Shown piece by piece: positions 29,966 through 62,572 of a stretch of 64,000 nt of DNA. Under the pieces are notes generated by a model. It made no database searches. It worked only from the letters and a program-made list of their open reading frames with translations, and was not told the DNA's origin. Every line of letters begins with the position of its first letter. Positions within the stretch are counted from its first letter, which is position 1. The stretch lies in the sequence record OR992645.1. One strand, written 5' to 3'. A program made the position numbers and the translations under genes. This DNA comes from Escherichia phage EI-SP-GF.

Positions 29966-29971
29966 CCTTTT

Positions 29972-33213: not shown

Positions 33214-33281
33214 AAAGTAATTGGAGATACTAGCCCTCTGACGAGGGCTATTTTGTTATACTGTTTTGAGGGGTAAAGCTT

Positions 33282-34838: not shown

Positions 34839-34905
34839 AAATTATCAACACAGGGGGTTGCAAAACCTCCTTTGGCGTGATAAAATAATCCACATGGGGA
34901 ATAAG

Positions 34906-37791: not shown

Positions 37792-37820
37792 GGGGAGGGG
37801 GTTCTCCCCCTCCCCTTTTT
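37792..37820 (+). terminator. intrinsic terminator after major capsid gene
   Basis: Perfect 10-bp stem GGGGAGGGGG/CCCCCTCCCC, loop TTCT, then TTTTT. Confidence 0.75.
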
Positions 37821-39356: not shown

Positions 39357-39362
39357 AAATTG

Positions 39363-39391
39363 TTGCTTTTGATGTATCTTTGTGGTAAAAT
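39363..39391 (+). promoter_or_regulatory. sigma70-like promoter (TTGCTT-N17-TAAAAT, TGGTAAAAT extended -10)
   Basis: Hexamers at 39363-39368 and 39386-39391. Confidence 0.45.
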
Positions 39392-39409
39392 ACATTAGTG
39401 AGGAATATA

Positions 39410-39868
39410 ATGCTAAAGGTTAAATGTCAAACAAGGTTCAACCTAAAGCGTTTAGATCGCTTTTATAAAGACCTTGTGAAACTTGAAAGCAAAACAATAA
39501 CCTACGGCTTTTATGATGAACCTCACCCGTCAGGCTTAAATATGGCAACATTGGCAGCTATTCACAACTTCGGTTGGAACGGGCTGCCTGTTCGCAATTT
39601 CATGGAGACGGCCTTTGCATTTCACAGCACGCAACTACAGACCTTGACAGAAAAATTGTTGAGAGCTATGGCTAGAGGATCAAGTGCAGAGGCTGTTCTT
39701 AGACAGATGGGGGACACAGGGGCCAAAGCTATCCAGTTTGTTATTGAGGCTGGTCAGTTTAGTAACCCTACTGTTAGTGAGCAGTGGGCACAAGAGAAGG
39801 GCTTCAACGAGGCTATGCGGCATTACGATGTGCTGCTTGAATCTGCAACCTTTAAAATTGGACAGTAA
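39410..39868 (+). CDS. hypothetical protein (152 aa)
   Basis: Start moved to ATG 39410 (GTGAGGAA RBS). Confidence 0.4.
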   Translation: MLKVKCQTRFNLKRLDRFYKDLVKLESKTITYGFYDEPHPSGLNMATLAAIHNFGWNGLPVRNFMETAFAFHSTQLQTLTEKLLRAMARGSSAEAVLRQMGDTGAKAIQFVIEAGQFSNPTVSEQWAQEKGFNEAMRHYDVLLESATFKIGQ

Positions 39869-39882
39869 AATAAGGGGGTTGA

Positions 39883-40308
39883 GTGGCAGCAGGTTATAAG
39901 CTGATAGGAAAGAACAGGCTAATACCTCGTAAAACATTCAAAGGTCGCCACAGAGTGTATAACAAAACAGTTGGTGGTCCTTTTGCTAACGAGGGGTTAG
40001 AACTTGAGTATGAAGAGTTTGATGTCTTAGAGTGTGTTGTGCAGCCGTTGACAGGAAGGGCAGCTAAAGATTACTCCTCTCAAATAAATCCTGAGGGTGA
40101 CAGACAGTACGAGGCTTTTACAGTTTACTCCTCAACCAAGTTGTATAGTCCAGACGAAGGAACATATGCAATGGCTGATCAAATTCAACTGCCTGACATC
40201 CGTGGTGACCTGAAGTGGTTTACCGTTTTAAAATGTGATGCTTATGTCACGTCTGGTGGTGGAAGATATAGATTTTTTGTGGTAGAAGAGCCTGAAGGAG
40301 AAAACTGA
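39883..40308 (+). CDS. hypothetical protein (141 aa, GTG start)
   Basis: ORF track; AGGGGG RBS. Confidence 0.4.
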   Translation: MAAGYKLIGKNRLIPRKTFKGRHRVYNKTVGGPFANEGLELEYEEFDVLECVVQPLTGRAAKDYSSQINPEGDRQYEAFTVYSSTKLYSPDEGTYAMADQIQLPDIRGDLKWFTVLKCDAYVTSGGGRYRFFVVEEPEGEN

Positions 40309-40859
40309 TGGAAGCTTTCGAAAAAGTTTTTTCTGATCTTGAAACAACCATCGCTAAGCTTGTCAAGGTTGCCACAGGAAGAACTGTAGTTCTGGCAGAA
40401 AGCTCTACCATACCGAAGCCGGAAGGTGAGTTTGTACTTTTGCAAACCCTGGCGATCAATCCCACCACTTGGGAAGATAATGAGTTTCAAGATGCGGAGG
40501 GTAATGCTTACGTCACCCACAGTTATACTGTTACTTATCTGTTAACAGCTTATCGCGGCAGGGCATATGCTGCACTTAGCAGAGTATTGCAAGCAATAAA
40601 CCTTCCAATGTTTTATGACAAGTATTTCCCTCTGGGATCGTGCTTTGCCTACTCTAACAATTCAACAATTTCACCTCAAAGGGTGCCGTTGAATAAGCAG
40701 ACGTATGAAAATAGAGCCACCGTAATGCTGACATTTAACGTAAGGTTTGTTGAGACAGACATTGGGGCTTTTGAGGATCTTCAGGGAATTAAGGCTGAAA
40801 TAACCACACACTTCCCTTCACCCAATTCTGGTAAAGCGGTTACAGACAGTGGTCAGTAA
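40308..40859 (+). CDS. hypothetical protein (183 aa)
   Basis: ATG overlaps upstream stop (TGATG). Confidence 0.4.
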   Translation: MEAFEKVFSDLETTIAKLVKVATGRTVVLAESSTIPKPEGEFVLLQTLAINPTTWEDNEFQDAEGNAYVTHSYTVTYLLTAYRGRAYAALSRVLQAINLPMFYDKYFPLGSCFAYSNNSTISPQRVPLNKQTYENRATVMLTFNVRFVETDIGAFEDLQGIKAEITTHFPSPNSGKAVTDSGQ

Positions 40860-40931
40860 TCGTTATAATTGTGTAGTGTAATGATTACACTGCGTGTTTG
40901 ATATCCGTGCACAGATATTAAGAGGAAACAA

Positions 40932-42308
40932 ATGCCATATTTAGATAAAGTGGTAGATGTTACAGTTAACCTCGGAACCCAACCTATTGACACTGTAGGT
41001 TTCGAAACTCCCCTGTTCATCGCTATCCACAACAACTTTACTGAGCGAGCTCGCGTATATGCGGAGCTGGATCAGATGGTGGAAGATGGTTTCGCACAAG
41101 GCTCTGCAGCGTATGAGTTTGCAGCAAAAGCTTTTGGTGGTGTATTCCCTCCACAATATGTTATGATCGGCAGACAGGCCAAAGAAAAAACCACTGTAGA
41201 TTTTAAAGGTATTGCTGCCGCAGCTGATACTGATGTCGTAATGACTATTGCAAAAGGTGGCTACAATACCTCTCTGATAGTGCCTATCTCTGGTGGAACA
41301 GGTGCAACTCAGATTGCAGAGTCAATGAAGACTAAAATCGAAGCAGATGATAATTTGGACGGTATCACTGTAGAGGCTGAAGAAGGTGTTATCACCATCA
41401 CTGGTGACTGCACTGTTGGTTATCATACTGGTAACTATACAATCAAAAATATCGCCAATTCTGAAAAACCTTCTACAATAGTTGATAAGATCAATGCTGA
41501 GCGGGACAATTGGTACTTCCTGTGCCATGAAGACCACACCGACATTGAAGCATGTGCTAAGTGGGCTCAGGCCAACTACAAGCTGCACGTCTACTCTACT
41601 GCAGAAGATGTGACTGGCAAAGACAGTAACATCGCTACCAAACTGAAAGCTGCACAATATGACAGTGTTGGCATGTACGATCCTCGTGCAGATAAGGACT
41701 TCCCGGAGGGTGGTATCATAGGTGCTATGGCATCCAACGATCCGTCCTACGGTGACAGCTTGCACTTAAAACAGATGCCAGGTGTGATTGCACCATCTCT
41801 GACTTTAACTCAGCGTATGGCGATTTGGGAAAACCACGTTAACTTCTACAGAATGATTAACGGTGTTGGCGCTTTCTGGGAAGGTAAGTGTGCTTCAGGT
41901 CAGTATGCAGACGCTATTCGTTTTGCACACTGGATCAAGTTCAGATCTGAAGAATCCATGTTTGGGTACATGCATCGCCGCTCCAACATGGGTTTAAGCA
42001 TGAAGATGTCTGATGATGATCTTCCGGTTATCAAGTCTGTTCTGATGAACAACCCGATCAATACTGGCATTAAGAATGGCGCGATCCTGACAGGTTTTGA
42101 CGAAGACAACAATGTGTTCTACGACCCGATCATCACAGTTCCTAAACGTGCAGAGATCCCAACCAATCAGTTGGCTGCTCGTGTTCTGGAAGGTGTGAAA
42201 GTAGAACTGGTGTATAACAACGCCCTGCACTTCGTTCGTATCCGGATCAACGTCCTTCTGGACAAGGTTGGTTCTAAATCCACCAATGCTGTTGCAATGA
42301 CTGAATAA
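40932..42308 (+). CDS. putative major tail protein (tail sheath-like by size and gene order)
   Basis: 458 aa, followed by a 157-aa tube-like gene, chaperone pair and tape measure; order typical of contractile tails. Confidence 0.45.
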   Translation: MPYLDKVVDVTVNLGTQPIDTVGFETPLFIAIHNNFTERARVYAELDQMVEDGFAQGSAAYEFAAKAFGGVFPPQYVMIGRQAKEKTTVDFKGIAAAADTDVVMTIAKGGYNTSLIVPISGGTGATQIAESMKTKIEADDNLDGITVEAEEGVITITGDCTVGYHTGNYTIKNIANSEKPSTIVDKINAERDNWYFLCHEDHTDIEACAKWAQANYKLHVYSTAEDVTGKDSNIATKLKAAQYDSVGMYDPRADKDFPEGGIIGAMASNDPSYGDSLHLKQMPGVIAPSLTLTQRMAIWENHVNFYRMINGVGAFWEGKCASGQYADAIRFAHWIKFRSEESMFGYMHRRSNMGLSMKMSDDDLPVIKSVLMNNPINTGIKNGAILTGFDEDNNVFYDPIITVPKRAEIPTNQLAARVLEGVKVELVYNNALHFVRIRINVLLDKVGSKSTNAVAMTE

Positions 42309-42318
42309 GGAAGACTAG

Positions 42319-42792
42319 ATGGAAACTCAAATTTTAACTCCTTATGCTTATGACCCTAAAAAGGTCAAACTGTATCTGATGCAGCAGCGTGTCACTGGCT
42401 TCGCTGCTGACACCAAGATCGTTGTTTCAAGAAATGAAGACAACATCTACCCTCACGTTGGTGTGGATGGCGAAATGTCTGCGGCTCTGTCTCGTAACCA
42501 ATCTGGTGTTATGACTGTATCTTTGCAGAACACTTCTGTATGGAACGCCTACCTTTCCGACTGGCAGAAACAGGCATCAATTACTGGTCTGGTATTCTTC
42601 CCTGTTCTGCTGGAAGGTAGCCAGGGCCCTGGTATTGCCACAATCGGTTGGATCCAGAAACAGCCTGACCTGACTTATGGAACCGAAGTAGGTCAGCTGG
42701 ATTGGGATATCGGTATCCTGGATGCATGGCTCAACCGTGACAACATCACTGGTGCTCTCACTGGCCTCGCAGGTCTTGCAGGTATTATCTAA
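42319..42792 (+). CDS. putative tail tube protein
   Basis: 157 aa between sheath-like gene and chaperones; followed by strong terminator. Confidence 0.4.
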   Translation: METQILTPYAYDPKKVKLYLMQQRVTGFAADTKIVVSRNEDNIYPHVGVDGEMSAALSRNQSGVMTVSLQNTSVWNAYLSDWQKQASITGLVFFPVLLEGSQGPGIATIGWIQKQPDLTYGTEVGQLDWDIGILDAWLNRDNITGALTGLAGLAGII

Positions 42793-42810
42793 GAGCACAC
42801 TTCAGCATAA

Positions 42811-42841
42811 GCCTCACCTTCTGGTGGGGCTTTTTGCTTTT
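42811..42841 (+). terminator. intrinsic terminator
   Basis: 8-bp stem GCCTCACC/GGTGGGGC, loop TTCT, then TTTTTGCTTTT. Confidence 0.7.
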
Positions 42842-42882
42842 ATGGTTCTGACACACGTTCTTGAATTGCTTGAAAGGTTAAA

Positions 42883-42911
42883 TTGACAATGCACCATAAT
42901 CATGGTAAAAT
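42883..42911 (+). promoter_or_regulatory. sigma70-like promoter (TTGACA-N17-TAAAAT)
   Basis: Consensus -35 at 42883-42888, -10 at 42906-42911, TGGTAAAAT extended -10. Confidence 0.55.
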
Positions 42912-42954
42912 ACACAAATATGGTGCACAACATGACTAATAAGGATGCTATAAA

Positions 42955-43428
42955 ATGGCTATAAACTTTAGACCTACAACAGAGATTGACTTAGCAGGGC
43001 ACAACTTCGTGATCACCCACTGGGGGCCGATGAAGGCAATGAAAAATATGCCTAAGATTGGCAAGATTGTGGCTGTCCCGTTAGGTGCTATCGGTGGATC
43101 TATTATCTCAGGTGGTCAGAATATGGCTGAGGTTCTTCCTACTGCTCTGGCCTACCTGTTCCAGGAGCTTGATGACAACTCTATTGAAGAGTTGTTTAAA
43201 ATCTTGTTCGAAGATATTACTGTAGACGGTGTGGATAGGCTTAATCCAGATGTTGTGTTTGCAGGGCATCTGCTGGAGATGATTAAACTGGCAGGTAAGG
43301 TTCTGGAGGTTAACTACGGCTGTTTTTTCACACAAGACGGTTTAGGAAGCCTTCTGGAGATGTTACAGCAGATGGGTATGATTCAGCAGGTGAACAATCT
43401 GGATCAGACTCCGGAAGAGCAGGAATAA
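42955..43428 (+). CDS. tail assembly chaperone
   Basis: 157-aa acidic protein immediately upstream of tape measure gene. Confidence 0.5.
   Translation: MAINFRPTTEIDLAGHNFVITHWGPMKAMKNMPKIGKIVAVPLGAIGGSIISGGQNMAEVLPTALAYLFQELDDNSIEELFKILFEDITVDGVDRLNPDVVFAGHLLEMIKLAGKVLEVNYGCFFTQDGLGSLLEMLQQMGMIQQVNNLDQTPEEQE
43323..43329 (+). other. candidate -1 ribosomal frameshift slippery heptamer T_TTT_TTC
   Basis: X_XXY_YYZ heptamer in frame of chaperone ORF; -1 frame is open from here to stop at 43688. Confidence 0.4.
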
Positions 43429-43439
43429 GCAAAGTTGTT

Positions 43440-43688
43440 GTGAGAGCCAGTGAGTGGGCAGCTAAGAACAGCTCACTTAACTGGTTCGACTTTCTTTGGT
43501 GTAGGGTGCTCAAGAACTTTAAAGGGGAAAATTTTGAATCGCTTAATCTTGCAGATATGGCGTATTTCCTCAAGCTGTGTGAGTATCTTGATATCGAAGA
43601 ATTCCTAGATACCGTCCAAAACAGGGAAATGGAGCGGGAGCAGAAGGCTGCCGCAGCTGCTGCGAAAGCTAAGCGCAGGAGAGGATAA
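43440..43688 (+). CDS. tail assembly chaperone frameshift extension
   Basis: ORF in -1 frame relative to 42955-43428, contiguous open frame back to slippery site. Confidence 0.4.
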   Translation: MRASEWAAKNSSLNWFDFLWCRVLKNFKGENFESLNLADMAYFLKLCEYLDIEEFLDTVQNREMEREQKAAAAAAKAKRRRG

Positions 43689-43742
43689 TCTAAGGGCCGG
43701 ATTCCTTTTCTGGGATCTGGCCCTTTTTATTATGAGGAAAAC

Positions 43743-46082
43743 ATGGCTACAAATAAGATAGTTGCCACAACAGTCAACAAGATTGGCTTTGAGATAGAGA
43801 ACTCCTCCTACAAAAAAGCTGTAGAGAAAATTCGCAGTATCGGGAAGGAGTTCAGGAAACTGGGCGAGGATTTTAACTCAGCCAACCCTATGAGCAGATG
43901 GCAGGCAGTGGCTGTTAAAACTCAGCAGACAATGCAACGTGTTGCCAGACAGCAATCCCAAGCAAATGCTAAACTGCACAGGGAGAGCGTTGCTCAGGCC
44001 AAGAAAGAGGCTGCAGTAAAGGCTGCAATAGAGCGCAGGGAGAATGCAAGACGTAAGCAAGCTGTAGGCAATATTACCGCCAAAAACCCAGAGATGGCTA
44101 GGATGCGTAAGTTCTACCAGCAGCAAGCTAAAGAGGCCAAAAAAGCTGCCAAATCTGCACCAGTATCCTATGGTGGTTATAAGGCACCTAAGGCAAGAGT
44201 TCTTGCTAACGCCAAGTCTTTCAGATATATCCCAGGCAACCCTAACATGGGTGGGGTGGCTTCAGATCCTAATCTTGTGAAAGCCCAGACTGCTGCCATG
44301 AACCGTTATCACAGACAGTTAAGAAGGGACAGCAAAGCTGGGATGGATAATAGGCTTATGGCAGATCGTGAGGCAAGGAGAACCCACCTCTACAACTCTG
44401 CGATAAGACTTTCTGCCAAATATGGTGCCGGATTCCGTGGTAGTCTGTCTGGATATTCGGAGTTGGAGTCCAGATTTGCTCGCGGGGAAATGAGTAAGTC
44501 AACCTTTAACGCCCACCTGTCTGCGTTGCAGTCTGGGTTTAAAAGTGCCACCAGCCAAACTCTGACCCTCGGTGATGCTATGAGGGATTTGCGTAGATCT
44601 GTAATCAACGCTACAGCTGCGTATACCGCTTTTTCTGGATTTGCTGCAGTTAACAGATCCGGTCATATGATGGAGGGGGCAAGTGCTGCTCTTACTGCTG
44701 TTACTGGAGATCCAAACAAAGCCAACAGTGAAGTTGCGTTTGTCCAGCAGGAGGCTATGCGTCTTGGTTTTGACCTCAAGTCTGGTCTTCAGGGTTATTC
44801 TCAGATGGCGGTGAACGCCAAAAATCAGATGACAAACCAAGAGGTGCATGAGCTATTCTCTGCATACTCGCAGTATGCTGCTGCTTACGGTGCCGATGAG
44901 GTAAAATACCAGCGCGGTATTATGGCAATCCAGCAAATGCTCGGTAAAGGGCAAGTAATGTCCGAAGAACTGAAGCAACAACTTGCTGAAGCATTACCTG
45001 GTGCATACGAACCTTTTATCAAAGCTACCCAAGAGGCTTTTGGTCTTGCTGAGCTCTCCATGGATCAGTTCATGGATATGATGAAAAAAGGTGAAGTTAA
45101 AACAGCCAAGATCATGAAGTATGTGGCTAAGTACATGAATGAGGCATCTGCAGCTGGTTATGAAAGAATGCAGAAGTCTAACGTACTGGCAGAAAACAGA
45201 CTGAAAACCTTTATTGAACTGTCCCGTCAGAAACTGTTCACACGTTGGGCAGATGAGCTGACAGAGTTCTACTACACCTTAATCCGCACAGGTGAGACCC
45301 TGCAATTTGTGTGGGATGCCGCTGGTGATTTTGTTAGCGGGTTTGTGAGAGGTTTGAACTGGGTTGTTGGTGAACTAAACAACACTATAGTTAAGATCCG
45401 TTTGTTTTTCCTTGAATGGGGAATTAAATGGGGTATCATAACTGCTAAGACGAAGGAATATTCCGAAGAGATACATGACACCTTTAGCATGGCTAAATGG
45501 GCAGGGTATGCTGCTGCAATCATGCTGGTAGTGAACGCCCTTACCAAAGGGTTTGTTATGGCATCCATGCTTGTAAAAACATTTAAGTTCCTCAGCAACC
45601 TGAGAGGTGCAGCTGGAGCTGCAGGTGCTGGTGCAGTAACCGCAGACGGCTCTGGAGGAGGAGCAGCCGGAAAAGGTGGTGGAGGCATTAAGACGCCTGG
45701 CGGTAAAGTTGGCATTCTTGGCAAACTAGGTATCATTGGCACAATACTGAGTGCCGGAGAACTATTTAATGACCGTTTCAACCCGCTGAGTGAAAGAAAT
45801 CAACAGCTGGATACCATCAGCGATATGATTCGTAAAGACATCATATCTGGAGGTAACGGGTTTGTTGATCCTCTAAGCACCTTGCCGGGAGGTACTCTTC
45901 CGTTACCAGGTGGTCCTGGTTTTGCTTCTCAATTAAGAACCATGGAAATGCTACCTTTAGAGATCAGTGATGGTAAAATCACGATTTCAATAGATGAGGG
46001 TGAGTTTAGCAAAATATTTGATGCAAAACTTGAGTGGGAGAACAGTAAAGATATCAACTTTATGTCCACAGACCTTTGGTAA
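43743..46082 (+). CDS. tail tape measure protein
   Basis: 779 aa, Ala/Gln/Lys-rich helical sequence with Gly-rich segment, downstream of chaperones. Confidence 0.8.
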   Translation: MATNKIVATTVNKIGFEIENSSYKKAVEKIRSIGKEFRKLGEDFNSANPMSRWQAVAVKTQQTMQRVARQQSQANAKLHRESVAQAKKEAAVKAAIERRENARRKQAVGNITAKNPEMARMRKFYQQQAKEAKKAAKSAPVSYGGYKAPKARVLANAKSFRYIPGNPNMGGVASDPNLVKAQTAAMNRYHRQLRRDSKAGMDNRLMADREARRTHLYNSAIRLSAKYGAGFRGSLSGYSELESRFARGEMSKSTFNAHLSALQSGFKSATSQTLTLGDAMRDLRRSVINATAAYTAFSGFAAVNRSGHMMEGASAALTAVTGDPNKANSEVAFVQQEAMRLGFDLKSGLQGYSQMAVNAKNQMTNQEVHELFSAYSQYAAAYGADEVKYQRGIMAIQQMLGKGQVMSEELKQQLAEALPGAYEPFIKATQEAFGLAELSMDQFMDMMKKGEVKTAKIMKYVAKYMNEASAAGYERMQKSNVLAENRLKTFIELSRQKLFTRWADELTEFYYTLIRTGETLQFVWDAAGDFVSGFVRGLNWVVGELNNTIVKIRLFFLEWGIKWGIITAKTKEYSEEIHDTFSMAKWAGYAAAIMLVVNALTKGFVMASMLVKTFKFLSNLRGAAGAAGAGAVTADGSGGGAAGKGGGGIKTPGGKVGILGKLGIIGTILSAGELFNDRFNPLSERNQQLDTISDMIRKDIISGGNGFVDPLSTLPGGTLPLPGGPGFASQLRTMEMLPLEISDGKITISIDEGEFSKIFDAKLEWENSKDINFMSTDLW

Positions 46083-46093
46083 TTAAACTATGT

Positions 46094-46119
46094 GGGGGCT
46101 TCTGGCCCCCTTTATTTTA
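46094..46119 (+). terminator. intrinsic terminator
   Basis: GGGGGC/GCCCCC stem, loop TTCTG, then TTTATTTTAT. Confidence 0.6.
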
Positions 46120-46125
46120 TCAGTG

Positions 46126-46154
46126 TTGTAAAAACGGCTATTTTATGATACAAT
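46126..46154 (+). promoter_or_regulatory. sigma70-like promoter (TTGTAA-N17-TACAAT)
   Basis: Hexamers at 46126-46131 and 46149-46154; implies start near 46161 so gene start taken as ATG 46188. Confidence 0.4.
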
Positions 46155-46187
46155 ATCTAAATGGTATCGGAGTGTCCTGGAGAGGTT

Positions 46188-47072
46188 ATGCCAAGTAATA
46201 TAGTTGATGAAAAAGACCTGTACAAGCCTCAAGAGGTTAAATCTCCAAAGGCTGAAAAGGCAGAGCAGCAAACTGAAAGTGATGTAAAGTATACTATGTT
46301 TGTCAGCGGTCTTAACTACGGCGGTCGCAATATAGAGATGAAGGGTAAAAACTTCACTAACGACCTTGCCATTATCTTCGATCAGGTTGAGAATTATTCT
46401 TTTAAACAAACGGTCGATAAGTCAGATTTTGCAGTAGAAGATAAGTCTACCCTGTCAGACCATGCGGTGGTTAAGGATGGGGTATTTTCTTTCACTGGTC
46501 GGGTAAATACATCTCCTCATATAATTTATGAGCAAAACTACATTGATAGAAATACTGACTCCAAAAACCCTGCAGCGTCTATGCGACCTGGTGCGGCATT
46601 AGAAGCTTTGACAGAGATCATTAATAAGCGACAGTTGGTTTCTTTAGTTACCGAGGAGAGACTCCTTGAAAACTACATTATAACCAGTCTTTCTGCCAAC
46701 AAGTCTGTTGGTGAAGGTGCTGCAATGGTGTTTGATGTGGAACTTACAGAATTCCGCACATTCTACTTGAACAAGGTTGTTAATGCAACTGTATACAGCA
46801 ATCCTAAGAAGGTCGGTAAGACTCAACAAAAAGGTGCTGTCAACGATTGCAAGAATGGTAGTAACGTAGGTAACAAGAGAGACACAGGGGCATTTGCAGA
46901 CACCGCGTCCACAAATGCTGCAGAAGAGTGGCAGCCATACAAATCCATGATGTGGACAGATGAAAACGGTGTTACCCAATCAGCTGCAGATTGGTACTAT
47001 CAGGAATATGGAAGACCTTCCACCATAGTCCCATCTGAGCAGGGGAACTACAACAAAGTTAACGGAAAATAA
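46188..47072 (+). CDS. hypothetical tail/baseplate protein
   Basis: ATG 46188 with GGAGAGG RBS; first gene after tape measure. Confidence 0.45.
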   Translation: MPSNIVDEKDLYKPQEVKSPKAEKAEQQTESDVKYTMFVSGLNYGGRNIEMKGKNFTNDLAIIFDQVENYSFKQTVDKSDFAVEDKSTLSDHAVVKDGVFSFTGRVNTSPHIIYEQNYIDRNTDSKNPAASMRPGAALEALTEIINKRQLVSLVTEERLLENYIITSLSANKSVGEGAAMVFDVELTEFRTFYLNKVVNATVYSNPKKVGKTQQKGAVNDCKNGSNVGNKRDTGAFADTASTNAAEEWQPYKSMMWTDENGVTQSAADWYYQEYGRPSTIVPSEQGNYNKVNGK

Positions 47073-47084
47073 GGGGAGCGTGTA

Positions 47085-47465
47085 ATGGAGCTTAAAGATT
47101 GGTGCATAATCACCTTTGTGTGGGACATTGACGGCTTTCCTGATCAGACCATGCGTGTGGTTTTAGATAATGAAACCTATGAAATGCGTATGCAATGGAA
47201 CGAGAGGGATGAGTCCTGGTGGTTATCTCTTGGTCCAGTAGGCGACAGTCCTTTAGTAACCAGAAAAGTAACAGCTTGTCAAGACATTTTAGACGGACTG
47301 CATTACAGAGACGATTTACCGAAGGGTAGGCTGATGGCCCTGTCGTTTAAAGACGATCAATATTGGGGCAGGGTTGGAAGATACAACCTTGGGGCCAGAT
47401 CTGAGCTACAACTTGTATACGGCACCCCAGTTGATCTTTACAAGGAACAGCAAGGGTTAGCATAA
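47085..47465 (+). CDS. hypothetical tail/baseplate protein (126 aa)
   Basis: ORF track; AAGGGGAG RBS. Confidence 0.4.
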   Translation: MELKDWCIITFVWDIDGFPDQTMRVVLDNETYEMRMQWNERDESWWLSLGPVGDSPLVTRKVTACQDILDGLHYRDDLPKGRLMALSFKDDQYWGRVGRYNLGARSELQLVYGTPVDLYKEQQGLA

Positions 47466-49146: not shown

Positions 49147-49158
49147 TAGAGGGCTTGA

Positions 49159-49875: not shown

Positions 49876-49884
49876 GGAGAAATC

Positions 49885-50553: not shown

Positions 50554-50554
50554 G

Positions 50555-53152: not shown

Positions 53153-53187
53153 CATAGGGGGCTGTTTGCCCCCTTTCAGGAGAAAGA

Positions 53188-56100: not shown

Positions 56101-56994
56101 GCCTACGATGGTAGCCGTGAAGGTTTCTATCACCAAGGTTCAAACGCTGACGCACTTGTAATAGATCGCCACTACCCTGCTCCGTACGCTGGTACACTGC
56201 TTGTTTACAAAAACACAGCTAACAGACCTCAAGGTTGTGTGCAGGAATATATCACCTATTTTGGTGACAGATATACTCGTGCTGGTAACTACGTTGGCGA
56301 TGTCTTTACTTGGGAAGAATGGAGACACGATGCTGGTAAAGGCATTCAGTTAAGACCTAATTACACTTTTGGTGAAACCAGTAATCAACTGGAAATTCAT
56401 GTCGGTGCTAATAGTCTTTCTAGCAACGCCGATAACTTACCTACCAATACAGGTAGAATGTTCTATTGGGGTAACGCAGACAGGAAGAACGTGCTTGAGT
56501 TTCAGGTAAACGACAACGCTGCATCTGCTAGCTGGGTATTCCACTGTGGCACTAGGTCAGACGAGGCTAAGTCAAGATATTTTGCTGTCAACGGTGTAGT
56601 AGAGTGCACCACTGTGAGCCAGAGCTCTGATAGAGACCTGAAGGACAATATAGAGGTTATTCCTAACGCGCTGGAAGCTATCCGTAAGATGAAGGGCTAT
56701 ACCTACACTTTAAAAGAGAATGGTATGCCTCACGCGGGGGTAATTGCTCAAGAGGTCATGGAAGCATTGCCAGAGGCAGTAGGGTCTTTCGTGAAAAGGA
56801 AGGAAATCCCAAACCCTGATCAAGATGGAACTCCTTTGATAACAGAAGAAAGGTTCTATAACGTTGACTACGCAGCTGTAACAGGCTTGCTTGTCCAGGT
56901 TTGCAGGGAACAGGACGATAAAATAACCGCCCTTGAGGAGCAGGTTAAAAAATTGACAGAGGTTGTTACTGGGTTGCAAGAGAAACTGAAGTAA
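53188..56994 (+). CDS. tail fibre with C-terminal intramolecular chaperone (S74-like) domain
   Basis: C-terminal SDRDLKDNIEVIPNALEAIRKMKGYTYTLKE...GVIAQEV matches the autoproteolytic fibre chaperone signature; Gly-rich repetitive shaft. Confidence 0.75.
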   Translation: MADIKVVRIESLPATTAVTEDDYLVVQQPDLTRRVKIGDVVHVDGTVSHVISFKEGGKLNGPMDFAYFEEEDLYLRWKGEFPHTVPALSSPYSDGGITDAAWMVYTDPSLREELESTIGASMIMTAEGQSVQDVMDVTVQTANDAKALAQRVDFGTVHTVGDVIHLVNFVGPAVIEEGRTTNYPSEAAGEKFLNGVVSRRDTTTVDGIFRGATSGAMYTIAVTNGVATTKRIALRDEFKRLEANNPTRTVIRAGDDLNTAGYLQLDATGRWGMWNQQTASWQPLAIEQGGTGARDAAGARINLGAFYKQRAALESNFNINNLTGNQDGIYYQPMTAYATEANGYPAGSGAGHLIVWQNNANGGTGCRQEYYPFSNVDVWYLRTYQANTNQWTAWQPMVRPRNDETFRSHIGLGSRNSPTFGHLYLSQSSADVKSASGIVNGDKYSADGVLEHGYRIYSEVRNDNKAWLTIHLHKGAKGSETHRYLGFREDGVLDCPKYMQVGDLNGQLANWGLGEWIRSSGAERGFWGSKKAAKMVIWDGGMDEQGEGTLEWGVYNNRKAKWEPLPIACGGTSARTVGDAQAQFRIPLASGARPYVNLPRTAAMQDGKYYPIIVRTDPNFAATIGTDLTIVTRSSSGGDPMNCATLQCHYRTGGWTDRGDSFQGVINFYQNERAILGCVSPTRGKQEYVAFYVEARAFPVTVYAGATVIEVSTREADWQVGNVTGNQDGVKFCAPLESADLSLAIKGDDVTNTRPLVEFKGTSGFYTGGGTMWHYLGTPERYAVMSKTNMPKVELWADGLDYLCYGGPRKALFSNAGFQCASDGTEDLTNGTFTSKCGNGAGLKGQAEFRSTPEAGQVIVRDVVGTAHRFYNFNKDGTFSAPGGFVCHTGGDWNNQFGPNNPSKIMAGNVNGPEGSMVVGGLSVAFSGNYAFQMAGRLDQLYTRSIEGGNHRAWNKVIQHRGQGLGTEDLNAYDGSREGFYHQGSNADALVIDRHYPAPYAGTLLVYKNTANRPQGCVQEYITYFGDRYTRAGNYVGDVFTWEEWRHDAGKGIQLRPNYTFGETSNQLEIHVGANSLSSNADNLPTNTGRMFYWGNADRKNVLEFQVNDNAASASWVFHCGTRSDEAKSRYFAVNGVVECTTVSQSSDRDLKDNIEVIPNALEAIRKMKGYTYTLKENGMPHAGVIAQEVMEALPEAVGSFVKRKEIPNPDQDGTPLITEERFYNVDYAAVTGLLVQVCREQDDKITALEEQVKKLTEVVTGLQEKLK

Positions 56995-57002
56995 CTGTTT
57001 TG

Positions 57003-57030
57003 CCCTCGCTTCGGCGGGGGCTTTTTGTTT
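57003..57030 (+). terminator. intrinsic terminator
   Basis: Stem CCCTCGC/GCGGGGG with UUCG tetraloop, then CTTTTTGTTT. Confidence 0.7.
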
Positions 57031-57033
57031 GTA

Positions 57034-57062
57034 TTGCGTATTAACTCAAAATCTGGTAAAAT
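57034..57062 (+). promoter_or_regulatory. sigma70-like promoter (TTGCGT-N17-TAAAAT)
   Basis: Hexamers at 57034-57039 and 57057-57062; TGGTAAAAT extended -10. Confidence 0.5.
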
Positions 57063-57093
57063 AACTATCATGATTGTTTAACCTGGAGGCACA

Positions 57094-57684
57094 ATGTTTT
57101 TATGGGAAAGGCCTAGATACCTTCCAGATATTAGATTGGAGCTGCTGGCAGATATTGTTACGTTTAAAAGTCCGTTTACAGGTAAAACGCAAAAAGTGAC
57201 CTATGCCACACCTAACTGGAAAGGCACTTTGACGGTTTCCAATATCAGCGAGTCACAGTTGCTAGAGCTTAAGAGCTTTGTTGATCAGGTGTATAAAGAC
57301 GGGAACATTTTTCTTATTAAAACGTACGGTCACTCAGTAACAGCTAATGAGCCAATCGCCCTTGGGCCTACCGGTAACGACGATTTTTTGAAGACGGTCG
57401 GATGGGAGCCAAACAGAGACATAGCCAGAGCTGGGGATAAAATATCTGTTAACGATGAATTGAAAGTGGTAACAGCTCCAGTGCGCAGCGATGGTGTTGG
57501 GTCTGCTGTTATAAGCATATCTCCAAGACTTAGAAAACCTATTGCCGCAGGGGACACTATGAAGATAATAACTCAATCCCCAAAGGGTAGGTTTCATATC
57601 AGAGATATTTATAAAATTAAGCAAAAAGTCGATGCTATGCAAAAAGGTGATAATATAGTTATCAACTTCTTTGAGGATTTCTAA
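57094..57684 (+). CDS. hypothetical tail tip protein (196 aa)
   Basis: First gene of cluster ending with J-like protein; GGAGG RBS. Confidence 0.35.
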   Translation: MFLWERPRYLPDIRLELLADIVTFKSPFTGKTQKVTYATPNWKGTLTVSNISESQLLELKSFVDQVYKDGNIFLIKTYGHSVTANEPIALGPTGNDDFLKTVGWEPNRDIARAGDKISVNDELKVVTAPVRSDGVGSAVISISPRLRKPIAAGDTMKIITQSPKGRFHIRDIYKIKQKVDAMQKGDNIVINFFEDF

Positions 57685-57685
57685 G

Positions 57686-58237
57686 ATGATTAGAGCGCCA
57701 TTAGATAATTTATTTCTTGAAAAGCTGGAGCTTGATAGTGTTGAGATCTTAATTGCTGCAAAGCTAGAGCTACCAACAGGGACTGTCAGGGTGTGCTCAG
57801 GAACTGGTGTTGTGGTGATTGAGGGGCAACATTTTATAGGGATAGGTGGATCAGCAACATTGACTGCTGTGTCTGAGAAAGATGCTACCAACTTCGGATC
57901 TGTGGTAGCAACATTGAACGGATTTGATCCCAAGTATGTAGGTGATCTGCTGAAGACAGAGTATTCGGGTTGTCGTGCCACGTTGTATATCACAGCTATG
58001 GAGAATGGTTTACCTGTTACAACCAATGGCTTGTTTGACGGCCTTATAACAGACATGGCTATTCAGACAGGGGAGAATAGTGCTTTGTCCATATCCATAT
58101 CTTCCATCTTCAACAGCTGGTTAAGAGGTTTTCCTTATCGATACACAGAGGAGAGCCATAGCTCAAGAAACGATAATGACAGATTTTTTAAATATGTGGA
58201 TCAGGTGGCAAGCCGCCCGATCATTTGGGAGGTTTAA
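57686..58237 (+). CDS. hypothetical tail tip protein (183 aa)
   Basis: Start moved to ATG 57686 just after upstream stop. Confidence 0.35.
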   Translation: MIRAPLDNLFLEKLELDSVEILIAAKLELPTGTVRVCSGTGVVVIEGQHFIGIGGSATLTAVSEKDATNFGSVVATLNGFDPKYVGDLLKTEYSGCRATLYITAMENGLPVTTNGLFDGLITDMAIQTGENSALSISISSIFNSWLRGFPYRYTEESHSSRNDNDRFFKYVDQVASRPIIWEV

Positions 58238-58662
58238 TGAGCACACACCCTCGTTTAGTAGACTGGCAAGAAAGATTGTGGAAAGTGTTTGACGAAGAAG
58301 CTACCGTCCAGTTTGAATGGGGATTCCACGATTGTTGCACTTTTGCGGCTAAATGTGTTGATGCCCAATATGGAACAGATTTTCTTTCTAACTTTGAAGG
58401 AACGTATAAAACAGAGTTGGAAAGCAAGAGATGGTGCATGCTCCGTTTCAAAACCACCCACCTGCCTACTATTTTTGATCTCTTTTTGACTCGACTGGAT
58501 ACTCCTAAACAGGTTCAGCGTGGCGATATTGTTATTTTCGAAGGTCTGAACGGGCTCACCGCTGGTGTGTTCTGGAACAACCAGATTTGGGCGAAAGGTG
58601 ATAAGGGGATCTTTATGTTCGACATGAAAGATTCTATCGTTGTTGATGTCTGGAGGTATTAA
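58237..58662 (+). CDS. hypothetical tail tip protein with Cys/His motif (141 aa)
   Basis: Start moved to ATG 58237 (GGGAGG RBS, TAATG overlap); WGFHDCCTFAAKC could be a peptidase-like site. Confidence 0.35.
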   Translation: MSTHPRLVDWQERLWKVFDEEATVQFEWGFHDCCTFAAKCVDAQYGTDFLSNFEGTYKTELESKRWCMLRFKTTHLPTIFDLFLTRLDTPKQVQRGDIVIFEGLNGLTAGVFWNNQIWAKGDKGIFMFDMKDSIVVDVWRY

Positions 58663-61600
58663 TGCCAATTGCAATGATTGATAACATCGTTGCTTCTGCA
58701 AGATCTTCGAGCTATGACTGGAACGCATCCAAGGCAGCTCTGGCTGACAGCCTGAACACTGTTACCACCAGAACCCTGGATAAGATTTTCGAAGGTAACA
58801 AATCTTACAGAAGTCAGCAAGATAGACAAAAGCTTCTCAGATCTTCTGCTGCACCTTGCTCTGTAGTGTATGGGAAGACACGCACATCTGGATTGCTTGC
58901 GTTTTTGGAGCAGGACAGGGACAGAACCCTTCATTGTGCTATTGTTCTTGCCAATCATCCCTTGGAAGGTATAGAAGATATACTTATCGACGGTAATCCT
59001 ATTTCCTCGTATGGGGATTTGGTATCGTGGGAGTTACATAACGACAGGAAAACCTCTGATCCTTTCATGGGTACACACTGCCCTTCGTGGTCACCAGACA
59101 TGATAGGTAGAGGGATCAGTTGGCTACGTGCCAGCTTTAAGTTTGACCCTAACAAGTTTCCTTTTGGGTTGCCAAACGTTACACTCGTCAAGGTTGGTAA
59201 AAAATGTTATGATCCTCGTATCAGTAAAGAGGTGTATACCAATAACGCTGCCTTGGTGATTCTGGACTACCTAAGAACGTACCTTAAATGTCCTGACGAA
59301 ACCATCAACTGGGAGTCCTTCAAGGAAGCTGCCAACATATGCGATGAGGCTGTAAAAAACGCGGACGGAACCAGTGAGCGCCGTTACACCATTAATGGCG
59401 AGTTCGACATGGATGAAGCACCAGCAAGCATTATGGCAGAGATGCTGAAAGCTTGTGGTGCAGACCTTAGCTATGTAGCTGGCAAATATGGTCTGCTGGT
59501 AGGTGCATACTATGGCCCGGCAACAATGACACTTAGCGAGAACTGTGTTTGCGGTGAGGTTAAGATCTATCCTGAAGCCTCCTTCGACAAAAGATCCAAC
59601 ACAATAACTGGCAGATTCACTAGTCCGGCCAAAGGGTATTCTGAAACAGATTTTCCATCAGTGTTTGTCCCAGAGTGGGTAGAGAAGGATGGAGAAAGAA
59701 AGATAATCGATATAGATTATCGCTTTGTTACCAGTCCTTATCAAGCTCAGCGTGTTTCTGCAATCTTCTTAAGACGTGCCAGAGCTGGTAGGATTATTGA
59801 AGTAACCTGCAATATGCGGGGTTTTAAATTTAAGCCTGGGCGTTACGTTACGATGGACCTCCCAAGTATTGGTATAGTGGGCCAAGAAATGAGGGTTCTT
59901 GAATGGGAGTTCACCAAAAAGGGCGGTGTCAAGGTAAAACTCCGTCAAGATGCTAAAGAGTGGAATGATGCCACAGGGCAACTTCCGGATTCTGGAGATG
60001 TGGATATTCCGATATCCCCGTCCGGCGTAGCTCAACCGCAAAACTTCAGATACTCTGTTCTTCAAGCTGGGGAAGTAACTCATGGTGTTTTGGCTTGGGA
60101 CAACGTTGGAACTTATGCTCAAAATATTGTGCAGGTAAGAAAGAACGGAGAGATTATTTGGACAGCACAGACAGTTGAGCAGTTTGTCCGCGTAGAAGGA
60201 TTGACCAAAGGGTCATACACAGCAACCGTGGTTGCAACATCTTATAAAGGTGGTGTATCTCCAGAAGCTTACTGCGAGTTTAACATTCAAGCACCTGAAG
60301 CTCCTGTTTCTGTAGAAGTTAAGCAGGGATACTTTGCTATCACCTTGATTCCGCACAGCAGGGACTTAGCAAGTGTAAGCACCCAGTATGATTTTTGGAC
60401 ATCTGGTATGACAAGGTTGCCGGACACAAGTGATGCAACCGTTACTTCAAAAGCCACCCGTATGGGTGTTGGTTCAACTTGGACATCTGAAGGTCTGCAG
60501 AACGATAAGATTTATTATTGGTATATTCGAACCACAAACGCTTTTGGTAGTTCTCAGTTTGTAGAATGCGCTGCACGCTGCTACACCTCTATTGAAGATT
60601 TGATGCCTCAGATAGATGCTGAATTTAAAAAGACAGAAACTTATAAAGAGTTGATGAGCACTTTAGATTCCTCTATCGAGGAGGTTGAAAATCGTGTCAC
60701 AGAGCTTAACAAGTACATGGACGGAAGGGTAGATGAGGCATTCCAACAACTTGGAGATAGGATAGGTGCGGTAGTTGCAGAGACAACTCAGAAGTTTGAG
60801 GATGTCAATGGTAATATCACAGCTCTGGATAGGAAACTTGTTGCTGCACAGAACAAGTTCACCAACGATCTGAACACTGAAAGTGGAAGACTGGCATCCC
60901 TGATCGAGACAACCAATAAAGCAACCACTGATCTTCTGAACAAAAAGACAGAGGCTTTAGACGAGAAATTGGTTGCAGCCAAAGGGGAGTTGGTAGAACA
61001 AATAAGTGGTGTGGAGAGCGGATACCTTGCCGGAGATAAAACTCTAGATGGCAAGATCAATACCCAGAGAACGGAACTTGATGCAAGCATCTTAAGCACC
61101 AACCAGGCGACAGTGGATCTTCTCAACAGGACATCTGAAACTTTGGATCAAAAGATCAGTCAGACAAACGCGACGGTATCTAAGAACTATACCACCCTTG
61201 ATGGTAAGATAACTACCGCAAAAACTGATCTCAATACCTTGATTGCCAATACCAACAAGGCCACCACAGATTTGTTGAATCAGAAAACCTCTGCACTGTC
61301 GGAGCAGATAACTTCTGCACGTGGAGAAATTTCTACCAACAAACAGGCGATTAAGGATTTGGATGGTAAGCTGACCTCCACAAAAACAGCACTGGACGCT
61401 ACAATCTCCGATACCAACAAAGCAACCGTGGATCTTATTAACGGCACAGCGTCAGCTATTCGTCAAGAACTTGCTGTTGCTAAGCAGGAGATCATTGATG
61501 ATGTCGGTGATGTGTCAGAGCTTAGAGCTGCAGTAGCTACAACATCTAAGGCTGTGACAGACTTAGAGGGCAAAGTAACTGCTCAATGGGGCACAAAAAT

Positions 61601-62501
61601 ACAGGTAGACTCCGCAGGGAATAAGTATGTGGCAGGTATCCAATTGGGCATGGAAGGCTCTGGAGGCCAAGTTCAATCATACTTCATGGTTAGTGCAAAC
61701 AACTTTGCGGTATACAACCCCGGAAATGGAACAGCAACCCTTGCTTTCGCAATCAAGAACAACCAAGCATTCTTGAAAGATGCTTTTATAGAGAACGGGA
61801 CGATCTCTTCTGCCAAGATTGCACAAGAAATTTCGTCTAACAACTACGATGGCAACGGGTACCATAAATACGGTTGGTATATTAACAAGAACGGACACGC
61901 CCAGTTTATGGATGTGTGGGTGAAAGGTAACATCAACGCTAGTGCAGGTAACTTCACAGGGGCAGTTAACGCTACCAGTGGCACTTTCCGTGGGGATGTT
62001 TATGCCAATAATGGTAGCTTTAGAGGCACCATAGATGCAACAGGAGGTACATTCCGTGGACGTGTAGAAGCTTCCGTTATCCGTGCTAACCAGTTCGAAG
62101 GTGCAATCGTTGCACATAGGACCTATGGTGACTGTCCTCCGGTATATAACTCGCAGCAGAGGGTTTGCCGTTGGAGGTGGAGATATGTGGACAACGTTTC
62201 AGGGCAAGGTAAGAACGTAACATTCTTCTTTAAACTAAACGGAACCTTGTCTGGCTCCCAGCTCAACGTTTGGATAGCCGGACATCAAATCCTTGCAGGT
62301 AAGAAGTACGGAAACGACAACAACGGCATGTGTGCGGTAGGGATAACTGGTCTCGGTGAACAAACCATAGACATTATCGTCGAGATATACACACCATGGT
62401 CAACGTCAAGCGTGACAGGAGTTACAATATCTTGTCCAACCGTAATAGTTAGTCGTTCAAACTCTAGCTTCCAGGGACCTTGGAACGAGTCTCATGACTA
62501 A
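58662..62501 (+). CDS. lambda gpJ-like tail tip / host specificity protein
   Basis: Segments APEAPVSVEVKQGYFAITLIPH, YYWYIRTTNAFGSSQFVE and KYVAGIQLGMEG...FMVSANNFAV parallel lambda J; internal 30-aa coiled-coil repeats. Confidence 0.7.
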   Translation: MPIAMIDNIVASARSSSYDWNASKAALADSLNTVTTRTLDKIFEGNKSYRSQQDRQKLLRSSAAPCSVVYGKTRTSGLLAFLEQDRDRTLHCAIVLANHPLEGIEDILIDGNPISSYGDLVSWELHNDRKTSDPFMGTHCPSWSPDMIGRGISWLRASFKFDPNKFPFGLPNVTLVKVGKKCYDPRISKEVYTNNAALVILDYLRTYLKCPDETINWESFKEAANICDEAVKNADGTSERRYTINGEFDMDEAPASIMAEMLKACGADLSYVAGKYGLLVGAYYGPATMTLSENCVCGEVKIYPEASFDKRSNTITGRFTSPAKGYSETDFPSVFVPEWVEKDGERKIIDIDYRFVTSPYQAQRVSAIFLRRARAGRIIEVTCNMRGFKFKPGRYVTMDLPSIGIVGQEMRVLEWEFTKKGGVKVKLRQDAKEWNDATGQLPDSGDVDIPISPSGVAQPQNFRYSVLQAGEVTHGVLAWDNVGTYAQNIVQVRKNGEIIWTAQTVEQFVRVEGLTKGSYTATVVATSYKGGVSPEAYCEFNIQAPEAPVSVEVKQGYFAITLIPHSRDLASVSTQYDFWTSGMTRLPDTSDATVTSKATRMGVGSTWTSEGLQNDKIYYWYIRTTNAFGSSQFVECAARCYTSIEDLMPQIDAEFKKTETYKELMSTLDSSIEEVENRVTELNKYMDGRVDEAFQQLGDRIGAVVAETTQKFEDVNGNITALDRKLVAAQNKFTNDLNTESGRLASLIETTNKATTDLLNKKTEALDEKLVAAKGELVEQISGVESGYLAGDKTLDGKINTQRTELDASILSTNQATVDLLNRTSETLDQKISQTNATVSKNYTTLDGKITTAKTDLNTLIANTNKATTDLLNQKTSALSEQITSARGEISTNKQAIKDLDGKLTSTKTALDATISDTNKATVDLINGTASAIRQELAVAKQEIIDDVGDVSELRAAVATTSKAVTDLEGKVTAQWGTKIQVDSAGNKYVAGIQLGMEGSGGQVQSYFMVSANNFAVYNPGNGTATLAFAIKNNQAFLKDAFIENGTISSAKIAQEISSNNYDGNGYHKYGWYINKNGHAQFMDVWVKGNINASAGNFTGAVNATSGTFRGDVYANNGSFRGTIDATGGTFRGRVEASVIRANQFEGAIVAHRTYGDCPPVYNSQQRVCRWRWRYVDNVSGQGKNVTFFFKLNGTLSGSQLNVWIAGHQILAGKKYGNDNNGMCAVGITGLGEQTIDIIVEIYTPWSTSSVTGVTISCPTVIVSRSNSSFQGPWNESHD

Positions 62502-62509
62502 CAGTAAAG

Positions 62510-62534
62510 CCCCGCTTCGGCGGGGTTTATTTTT
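62510..62534 (+). terminator. intrinsic terminator
   Basis: Stem CCCCGC/GCGGGG with UUCG tetraloop, then TTTATTTTT. Confidence 0.7.
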
Positions 62535-62543
62535 ATGCTCAGA

Positions 62544-62572
62544 TTGACTATTGTTACAAAATTTGGTAAAAT
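62544..62572 (+). promoter_or_regulatory. sigma70-like promoter (TTGACT-N17-TAAAAT)
   Basis: Hexamers at 62544-62549 and 62567-62572; TGGTAAAAT extended -10. Confidence 0.5.

Follow-up and report, generated by a model that had tools for sequence, protein, structure and literature searches.

Likely sigma-70-type extended −10 promoters ahead of successive late units in an rV5-like Vequintavirus

Results and Discussion

Promoter sites and terminators of the morphogenesis region

The 64,000-nt stretch of DNA analyzed here (the window) comes from an rV5-like myovirus of the genus Vequintavirus that shares 94-97% identity with many E. coli phages. Its genome has a high A+T content (57%), and 8.8% of the window is non-coding. 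Four sites with the nonamer TGGTAAAAT lie within the morphogenesis region, 5' of the neck, tail-assembly-chaperone, distal-tail, and baseplate-J genes (Table 1), the distal tail protein gene being the first of a genus-specific tail-fibre block. In each of the four, a −35 hexamer beginning with TTG is separated from the nonamer by a spacer of exactly 17 nt, just as the original prediction had described them, and all four stand ahead of virion-gene units, as it had also proposed. Its description of the sites as near-consensus suits only 42883 (11/12 matches) and 62544 (10/12), the sites at 39363 and 57034 having 8/12 plus the TG. Family promoters are intergenic and share the orientation of the gene 3' of each, with 18-43 nt from the −10 element to the start codon and a Shine-Dalgarno sequence before each start.

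Table 1. Promoter sites, further exact nonamer copies, and intrinsic terminators in the window
Feature	Coordinates	Strand	−35, spacer, extended −10	Context
Late promoter, rV5 P056	39363..39391	+	TTGCTT-17-TGGTAAAAT	Predicted to drive neck1/tail-completion gene 39410-39868
Late promoter, rV5 P051	42883..42911	+	TTGACA-17-TGGTAAAAT	Predicted to drive tail assembly chaperone gene 42955-43428
Late promoter, rV5 P040	57034..57062	+	TTGCGT-17-TGGTAAAAT	Predicted to drive distal tail protein gene 57094-57684
Late promoter, rV5 P036	62544..62572	+	TTGACT-17-TGGTAAAAT	Predicted to drive Baseplate_J gene, GTG start at 62606
Added family member	34858..34886	+	TTGCAA-17-TGATAAAAT	5' of prohead protease gene (about 34906); absent from rV5 Table S4
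Added member, rV5 P064	33185..33213	+	TTGCCA-17-TGGTACAAT	5' of portal gene
Added member	46126..46154	+	TTGTAA-17-TGATACAAT	5' of tail tube initiator gene (ATG at 46188)
Composite-pattern site, rV5 P074	28781..28809	+	TTGACA-17-TGATAAAAT	Outside structural block, 5' of tRNA cluster
Exact nonamer in tape-measure ORF	45971..45979	+	TGGTAAAAT, without −35 TTG	Codes DGKIT; probably not a family member
Exact nonamer in RNR large-subunit ORF	7988..7996	-	TGGTAAAAT, without −35 TTG	Probably a chance copy
Intrinsic terminator	42809..42832	+		3' of tail tube gene, 50 nt before 42883 promoter
Intrinsic terminator	57002..57021	+		Immediately before 57034 promoter
Intrinsic terminator	62507..62528	+		Immediately before 62544 promoter
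Intrinsic terminator	46094..46110	+		3' of tape-measure gene, immediately before 46126 promoter

A strong intrinsic terminator had been described just before each of the four promoters, and one does precede those at 42883, 57034, and 62544. No hairpin or terminator lies upstream of the 39363 promoter, because the preceding ORF, which stops at 39356, ends 7 nt before its −35 element. Among the further sites, that at 46126 follows a terminator, and the hairpin at 33231-33250 comes after the 33185 promoter, not before it. The minus-strand half, when scanned against Rfam, gave no match.

These four sites are already known: they were predicted in 2013 as late promoters of Escherichia phage rV5, with the motif TggTAaAAtA (Kropinski et al. 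2013, Virol J 10:76, Additional file 4, Table S4C), and P036 and P051 are also listed as sigma-70 promoters in Table S4A of the same paper. The rV5 counterparts have the same sequences as the sites of the window except for one or two single-base differences, none of them within a −35 or an extended −10 element, and share their context, upstream of late genes and beside the same terminators (t052 and t041). The finding is therefore correct but ordinary, and mainly confirms, and slightly corrects, that in-silico annotation.

The family is larger than four sites and non-random

Across the whole window the exact nonamer occurs six times against an expectation of 1.0, a count reached in 0/100 shuffles, and four of the six copies (39383, 42903, 57054, and 62564, all on the + strand) are intergenic (P = 8e-4, given the non-coding share). 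We set aside the remaining two, at 45971 (+) and 7988 (−), which lie in ORFs and have no −35 TTG; since two exact copies fall in coding DNA, the nonamer alone is not enough to call a promoter. The composite pattern TTG-N17-TGnTAnAAT is far more selective, with eight matches in the whole window against 0.25 expected, all of them intergenic and on the + strand, and this count too was reached in 0/100 shuffles. As the composite pattern also picks up 28781 and, within the late region, 33185, 34858, and 46126, the family is larger than originally listed. TGnTA(A/C)AAT is present in every one of the seven late-region sites, four of which have exact copies of TGGTAAAAT. Outside the genus, in 628 kb of relatives, the composite pattern has 76 sense-strand vs 8 antisense-strand matches.

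Compared with the published rV5 list, the site at 34858 is new. The MEME match reported as P048 sat on the −35 region of the 46126 promoter rather than on its −10, and we have re-registered it to 46126-46154. The predicted P055 (window position 40279) is likely a MEME false positive, lying within an ORF and having TAGAAG in the −10 position.

The motif might in principle be a non-functional repeat that arose by chance, by compositional bias, or by duplication of intergenic cassettes, and the two exact copies in coding sequence and the A+T-rich genome count in favour of such an origin. The shuffles do not reproduce the observed counts, however, and neither the strict strand and intergenic bias nor the retention of the core elements across genera while the spacers diverge fits this explanation. 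Nor are the sites duplicated cassettes, because the sequence outside the core elements differs from site to site. We consider a non-functional origin extremely improbable, and the conservation described below effectively refutes it.

Core elements are conserved across genera

At the 39363 site, TTG, the 17-bp spacing, and TG(G/C)TA(A/T)AAT are kept in six GenBank genera and in 28/28 metagenomic relatives (Vequintavirinae-like loci with protein identities of 40-100%), while the remaining −35 positions, the spacer, and the flanks vary. In an alignment of this site from eight phages, the only invariant positions are TGTGGTA-AAT, the TTG, two Ts in the spacer, and a single T just after the −10 element. 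The 34858 site is kept as TTGCAA-17-TG(C/T)TAAAATA in five other genera, the positions in protease orthologues being taken from regex matches and annotation (tblastn pointed inside longer orthologues). TGnTAAAAT is found at the same position, after the tape-measure terminator, in five genera for the 46126 site, and the 62544 site has orthologues in five genera that carry TG(A/G)TAAAATA while their −35 decays. The site at 42883 is present with a different spacer in a sister clade (L011) and absent in Certrevirus, Seunavirus, and Klebsiella relatives, and the gene downstream of 57034 is limited to close relatives, a search of related loci with the 57094 protein returning same-genus contigs only.

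Within the genus, 0/84 fixed core positions are variable vs 27/609 other positions, one of these 27 being a degenerate n of the core. At the free positions of 72 unique sites, which are partly orthologous and so not independent, T (48/72) and R (66/72) precede the TG, and A follows the −10 element in 54/72; T and R before TG are the signature of the TRTGn extended −10 promoters of E. coli. The positions conserved across genera are the sigma-70 contacts, namely the −35 TTG, TRTG, and TAnAAT. This conservation across genera supports a function for the sites, and its subfamily-wide reach makes the promoters credible parts for annotation and phage engineering in a group of phages much used both for the biocontrol of E. 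coli O157 and in the BASEL collection.

Probable membership of the sigma-70 extended −10 class

The family consensus, TTG(A/C)n(A/T)-17 bp spacing-T-R-TG-G-TAAAAT-A, has the traits of sigma-70 extended −10 promoters: TAnnnT with TG one base upstream, a −35-like element at 17 bp (in this class such an element is optional and stands at 17 ± 1 bp), and an intergenic, co-oriented placement. It resembles the extended −10 promoters of E. coli (TGn/TRTGn) in the TG one base before TAnnnT, the T and R at −17/−16, the 17-bp spacer, and a −35 starting with TTG, and differs from them in that the sites are phage-borne, occur solely within one temporal or functional module, and carry a −10, TAAAAT-A, that is unusually invariant.

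The rV5 paper likened the motif instead to T4 late promoters, which would make TggTAaAAtA a −10-only element like TATAAATA, read by a phage gp55-like sigma with gp33/gp45-like co-factors. TAAAATA does partly resemble TATAAATA, and the motif is confined to upstream regions of late genes, but no site matches TATAAATA exactly, TTG is conserved upstream at exactly 17 bp, and so is TRTG directly before the −10. In T4 late transcription, the region 4.2 and region 3.0 contacts are not used by the gp55-type factor. Because the −35 TTG and the TRTG are conserved, we reject the T4-type reading as very unlikely; the comparison is not supported, and homologues of gp33, gp45, and gp55 are also absent according to the rV5 authors (Kropinski et al. 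2013).

We also considered a T4 middle promoter (MotA/AsiA), which is marked by a MotA box with the consensus (a/t)(a/t)(a/t)TGCTT(t/c)A centred at −30. The TTGCTT at 39363 recalls such a box and was rejected as one, its orthologues reading TTGATT, TTGAAA, or TTGCGT and the other sites having no TGCTT.

The analysis shows directly how the sites are built, that they occur non-randomly, on which strand and where with respect to genes they lie, and that exactly the positions contacted by sigma are conserved across genera; with these observations we regard the sites as likely to be genuine sigma-70-type extended −10 promoters heading successive late units of this rV5-like Vequintavirus. Initiation at the sites, their recognition by E-sigma70, and its timing are inferred from sequence and conservation, since the literature searched gave no TSS, RNA-seq, or in vitro transcription data on Vequintavirinae. 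The host RNA polymerase holoenzyme would read the sites mainly via sigma regions 2.4 (TAAAAT) and 3.0 (TRTG), with a smaller contribution from the conserved −35 TTG, touched by region 4.2. Several sites lie directly 3' of intrinsic terminators and would therefore restart transcription for the next block, the blocks restarted being protease/scaffold/capsid, neck/sheath/tube, chaperone/tape measure, tube initiator/baseplate hub, tail fibres, and baseplate J. The original proposal that structural genes are transcribed by host RNA polymerase thus finds support in the sigma-70 extended −10 anatomy, in the conserved contacts, and in the literature, no phage RNA polymerase having been reported for rV5 (Kropinski et al. 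2013) or for Certrevirus (Buttimer et al. 2020, PMC7344957). Its further characterization of the promoters as strong and constitutive-looking is not supported, because the late sites differ as a class from early/middle promoters.

Late sites form a class apart from early/middle promoters

We compared both classes under one uniform scan. TTGACA is found in 10/11 intergenic promoters of the replication module and of the 25.6-31.7 kb region, whose −10 hexamers vary. In the late region, TG, TA(A/C)AAT, and a following A are present in 7/7 sites, their −35 elements are degenerate beyond the TTG, and TTGACA is found in only 1/7 (Fisher P = 0.002 vs the other class). The early region (70-90 kb) of the relative EduardKellenberger, in a scan that covered 90 of about 131 kb of its genome, contains about 20 promoters with TTGACA, most of which lack TG, and only one late-type site. 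The late sites are thus a class apart, and this dichotomy points to class-specific, rather than constitutive, use. So clean a separation also makes the temporal control of rV5-like phages directly testable.

One refinement of the sigma-70 assignment is that a phage factor disables recognition of the −35 element by sigma region 4, as T4 AsiA and gp39 of Thermus phage P23-45 do, so that the TTGACA early/middle promoters are shut off while those with TGnTAAAATA keep firing, in a temporal rather than constitutive regime. Besides the separation of the two classes in the uniform scan, other genera keep the extended −10 and lose the −35 at the baseplate-J and tube-initiator sites (TTTTAA, TTTATA, and TTTTTT), the documented action of AsiA and gp39 spares extended −10 promoters (PMC3950348), and the annotation of the genus includes a Srd-like "anti-sigma factor". 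However, the −35 TTG is present at 17 bp in every late site of the genus and in 28/28 orthologues of the 39363 site, and this conservation argues that the region 4 contact is still in use; these phages are not known to encode an AsiA- or gp39-like protein; and the pairing of a strong −10 and a weak −35 also occurs as a normal form of compensation in ordinary promoters. The annotated anti-sigma protein of EduardKellenberger has an HNH endonuclease as its best PHROG (3e-110), with Srd/sigma-decoy PHROGs at 1e-9 to 1e-12, and no Pfam match, and lends weak support to any switch. On balance we consider this refinement rather unlikely.

Extended to the subfamily, the proposal would be that Vequintavirinae time their expression by two sigma-70 classes, a −35-driven TTGACA class for early/middle genes and an extended −10 class (TRTGnTAAAATA) for late genes, with an AsiA/gp39-like phage protein hampering region 4 and −35 recognition and so switching host RNA polymerase without a phage sigma factor or a phage RNA polymerase. 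This generalization is speculative, and in our judgment unlikely. The likeness to the extended −10 middle/late promoters of Thermus phage P23-45 (gp39) and to the AsiA-resistant extended −10 promoters of T4 infection is that the late module here is extended −10-based and the other class is based on a consensus −35. The P23-45 promoters, however, have no discernible −35, whereas here the TTG is conserved in the genus and the −35 is otherwise degenerate; furthermore, a sigma-4-displacing phage protein that binds the beta-flap/sigma-4 is part of the P23-45 switch, and membership of the present late class in such a system would be hypothetical.

Closer to the present phage, a sigma-70-like early promoter, AAAA(N3)TGTTGAC(N19)TATAAT, has been described in Certrevirus (Buttimer et al. 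2020, PMC7344957), which belongs to the same subfamily, has the same reliance on host RNA polymerase, and was approached by the same MEME-type prediction. That motif represents the early/middle class, with a consensus −35 and a concentration in the small-ORF region, whereas the family described here is a late-region class.

A family of predicted extended -10 promoters in the late region

The extended -10 nonamer TGGTAAAAT occurs six times in the window, against 1.0 copy expected (0/100 shuffles reach six), and four of these copies lie in the 8.8% of the window that is non-coding (P = 8e-4). The four sites of the original prediction, named by the first base of the -35, are intergenic and on the plus strand and, as described there, have TTGnnn exactly 17 nt before the nonamer. 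The remaining two copies, at 45971 (+) and 7988 (-), are within ORFs and have no -35 TTG. A relaxed composite pattern, TTG-N17(ending TGn)-TAnAAT, gives eight matches in the window where 0.25 would be expected. All eight are intergenic and on the plus strand, and A directly follows the -10 at all seven late-region sites (TGnTAnAATA). The observed family of sites is real and statistically robust.

The sequence is that of an rV5-like myovirus (Vequintavirus), and its positions 39000-47000 share 94-97% identity with over 100 records of E. coli phages. About 18-23 GenBank records under the name "Campylobacter phage" (with C. jejuni as host; e.g., MG065652.1 and MG065677.1) are also 94-98% identical to this E. 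coli Vequintavirus, which suggests mislabelled or contaminating phages. All genes are on the plus strand from 25.6 kb onward; late-gene names were transferred from phage EduardKellenberger (sheath 100% identical), with additional Pfam and PHROG matches.

Promoters, terminators, and gene layout of the window, with one gene of phage EduardKellenberger
Feature	Position	Strand	Remarks
Nucleotide-metabolism and replication genes	1-25.6 kb	-	PhoH, NrdD, NrdAB, ThyX, DNA ligase, RNA ligase
Short region	from 25.6 kb	+	Replication-initiator-like gene, small ORFs, tRNAs
Late genes	from ~30.6 kb	+	Spanins, terminase, portal, protease, capsid, neck, sheath, tube, tape-measure, baseplate, tail-fibre
Composite-pattern member	28781	+	Upstream of tRNA cluster
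Large terminase exon 1	31315-31743	+	
Large terminase exon 2	32093-33181	+	
Composite-pattern member	33185	+	Portal
Composite-pattern member	34858	+	Prohead protease
Terminator	37792-37815		Strong, intrinsic; after major capsid gene; no promoter before next gene
Promoter	39363	+	TTGCTT, 17 nt, TGGTAAAAT; intergenic
Promoter	42883	+	TTGACA, 17 nt, TGGTAAAAT; intergenic
Terminator	43692-43725		Strong, intrinsic; just before tape-measure gene; no promoter before next gene
Composite-pattern member	46126	+	Tube initiator
Promoter	57034	+	TTGCGT, 17 nt, TGGTAAAAT; intergenic
Promoter	62544	+	TTGACT, 17 nt, TGGTAAAAT; intergenic
bas59_0055, "anti-sigma factor"	12796-13773 of the EduardKellenberger record (L051)		Homologue of Srd-like rV5 gp11; outside the window

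Several other features accompany this layout. The large terminase gene, uninterrupted in the close relative EduardKellenberger, is split here by a group I intron at 31731-32009 (Rfam RF00028, 84 bits); a promoter-like TTGACA-17-TGGTAACAT lies within the intron at 31791-31819. On the minus strand, the anaerobic ribonucleotide reductase NrdD is in two parts (N-terminal, 5506-6369; C-terminal, 3449-4657) with an HNH_3 endonuclease ORF between them (4751-5284), and Rfam detected no intron at this split. The region 26384-27130 is a candidate replication origin: a small HTH protein matching the PHROG "replication initiation protein" (5e-80) precedes four iteron-like repeats of ~21 bp (CTGTCCGTGATACGGACAC, 26800-26891) and non-coding DNA rich in A+T. 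In the tRNA cluster, ARAGORN reports an unusually long tRNA at 29869-29967 with a 4-nt anticodon and no identity called, and its Rfam score is weak (37.5 bits).

Conservation across the subfamily

The case for these sites as putative functional promoters rests on conservation, assessed in the late regions of six genus-level relatives (CR8, EC152, TH18, Iguana_ER37, LTH01, and KLEP7), in IMG/VR contigs, and in 32 metagenomic loci with the neck protein as anchor. Within an eight-phage alignment of 39363, the only invariant positions are the -35 TTG, two Ts of the spacer, TGTGGTA-AAT, and a single T just past the -10. The form TTGnnn-17-TG(G/C)TA(A/T)AAT is kept in 28/28 Vequintavirinae-like loci (neck protein 40-100% identical), with -35 positions 4-6, spacer, and flanks variable, and the site is absent in relatives at 30-33% identity. 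Five other genera have TTGCAA-17-TGnTAAAATA as the protease site. At the baseplate-J site (62544), TG(A/G)TAAAATA is retained across five genera at 52-61% protein identity while the -35 drifts from TTGACT to TTGCAA to TTTATA and TTTTAA. The sister-clade orthologue of 42883 (76% neck identity) is TTGACA-17-TGTTAAAATA with a completely different spacer; at this locus in Certrevirus, Seunavirus, and Klebsiella relatives only a hairpin was found, and no promoter. A genus-specific tail-fibre insert lies downstream of 57034.

Outside the genus, the composite pattern has 76 sense-strand matches vs. 8 antisense-strand matches in 628 kb. At unconstrained positions the 72 unique sites show T and R ahead of the TG, a TRTGn extended -10 signature, together with G at -13 and A after the -10. 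Within the genus, 0/84 fixed core positions vary vs. 27/609 others (one of the 27 being the degenerate n of the core).

Terminators, read-through, and the probable recognizing polymerase

Strong hairpins with T-tracts lie immediately upstream of 42883, 46126, 57034, and 62544. Upstream regions of 39363 (preceding ORF stops at 39356), 34858, and 33185 contain no terminator, so that the predicted placement of each promoter just after a strong terminator holds for 42883, 57034, and 62544 but fails for 39363. No promoter separates the terminators at 37792 and 43692 from the genes behind them; partial read-through must also occur to express these genes, which may tune stoichiometry. A terminator-like hairpin and T-tract at 33231-33250 follows the portal promoter (33185-33213), ahead of the portal start (region 33185-33282), and is a possible attenuator or 5' stabiliser.

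In the best-supported model, host E-sigma70 would recognise the late promoters via regions 2.4 and 3.0, with the partial -35 helping, and re-initiation after terminators would divide the late region into six or more units. The sigma-70, host-polymerase reading originally proposed is well supported by sequence and phylogenetic footprinting, and neither rV5 (PMC3606486) nor Certrevirus (PMC7344957) has been reported to encode its own RNA polymerase. A phage factor might enforce a switch to the late class. Extended -10 promoters are documented to be spared by AsiA and P23-45 gp39 (PMC3950348); conservation of the -35 TTG argues that the region 4 contact would still be used here. The sole switch-factor candidate annotated in the genus, the Srd-like "anti-sigma factor" bas59_0055, has its strong match to an HNH endonuclease PHROG (3e-110); its matches to Srd and sigma-70-decoy PHROGs reach only 1e-9 to 1e-12, and it has no Pfam match.

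Relation to published rV5 promoters

Kropinski et al. (2013) listed 33 sigma-70-like promoters in rV5, 11 with extended -10 regions, and by MEME analysis of late-gene upstream regions obtained eight copies of TggTAaAAtA, which they likened to the T4 late promoter TATAAATA (PMC3606486). Their P056, P051, P040, and P036 (Table S4C; P051 and P036 also in the sigma-70 table) are the four window sites, differing at one or two single bases, none of which falls within the -35 or extended -10. These sites are therefore known as published predictions and have no novelty in themselves. The present analysis does not support the T4-late analogy: TTG and TRTG are conserved, TATAAATA is found at none of the sites, and homologues of gp33, gp45, and gp55 were not found in rV5 (PMC3606486). 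Compared with the published list, 34858 is an extra family member, and P048 had been placed over the -35 of the true site (46126-46154); P055 (window 40279) is probably spurious as a promoter. The literature searched yielded no transcriptomic or transcription-start-site study of the subfamily.

Two promoter architectures

In one uniform scan the promoters fall into two architectures. In the replication module and at 25.6-31.7 kb, intergenic promoters have TTGACA in 10/11 cases and variable -10 hexamers; in the late region, TG, TA(A/C)AAT, and A are present without exception, and TTGACA in only 1/7 (Fisher P = 0.002). The EduardKellenberger early region has ~20 TTGACA-16/17-TATAAT-like promoters, mostly lacking TG, and one late-type site. 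The family is therefore sigma-70-like but not simply "constitutive-looking," as had been proposed; it is a late-module class with the extended -10 as its defining determinant. The added value is modest: subfamily-wide conservation and a two-class architecture, which together make a temporal switch testable.

Directly downstream of the -35 hexamer, positions -29 and -28 both carry A or T in 8/8 late-type promoters, 8/10 replication-module promoters, and all 72 unique sites from relatives. Of the early-region TTGACA promoters of EduardKellenberger (70-90 kb), only 3/20 do so.
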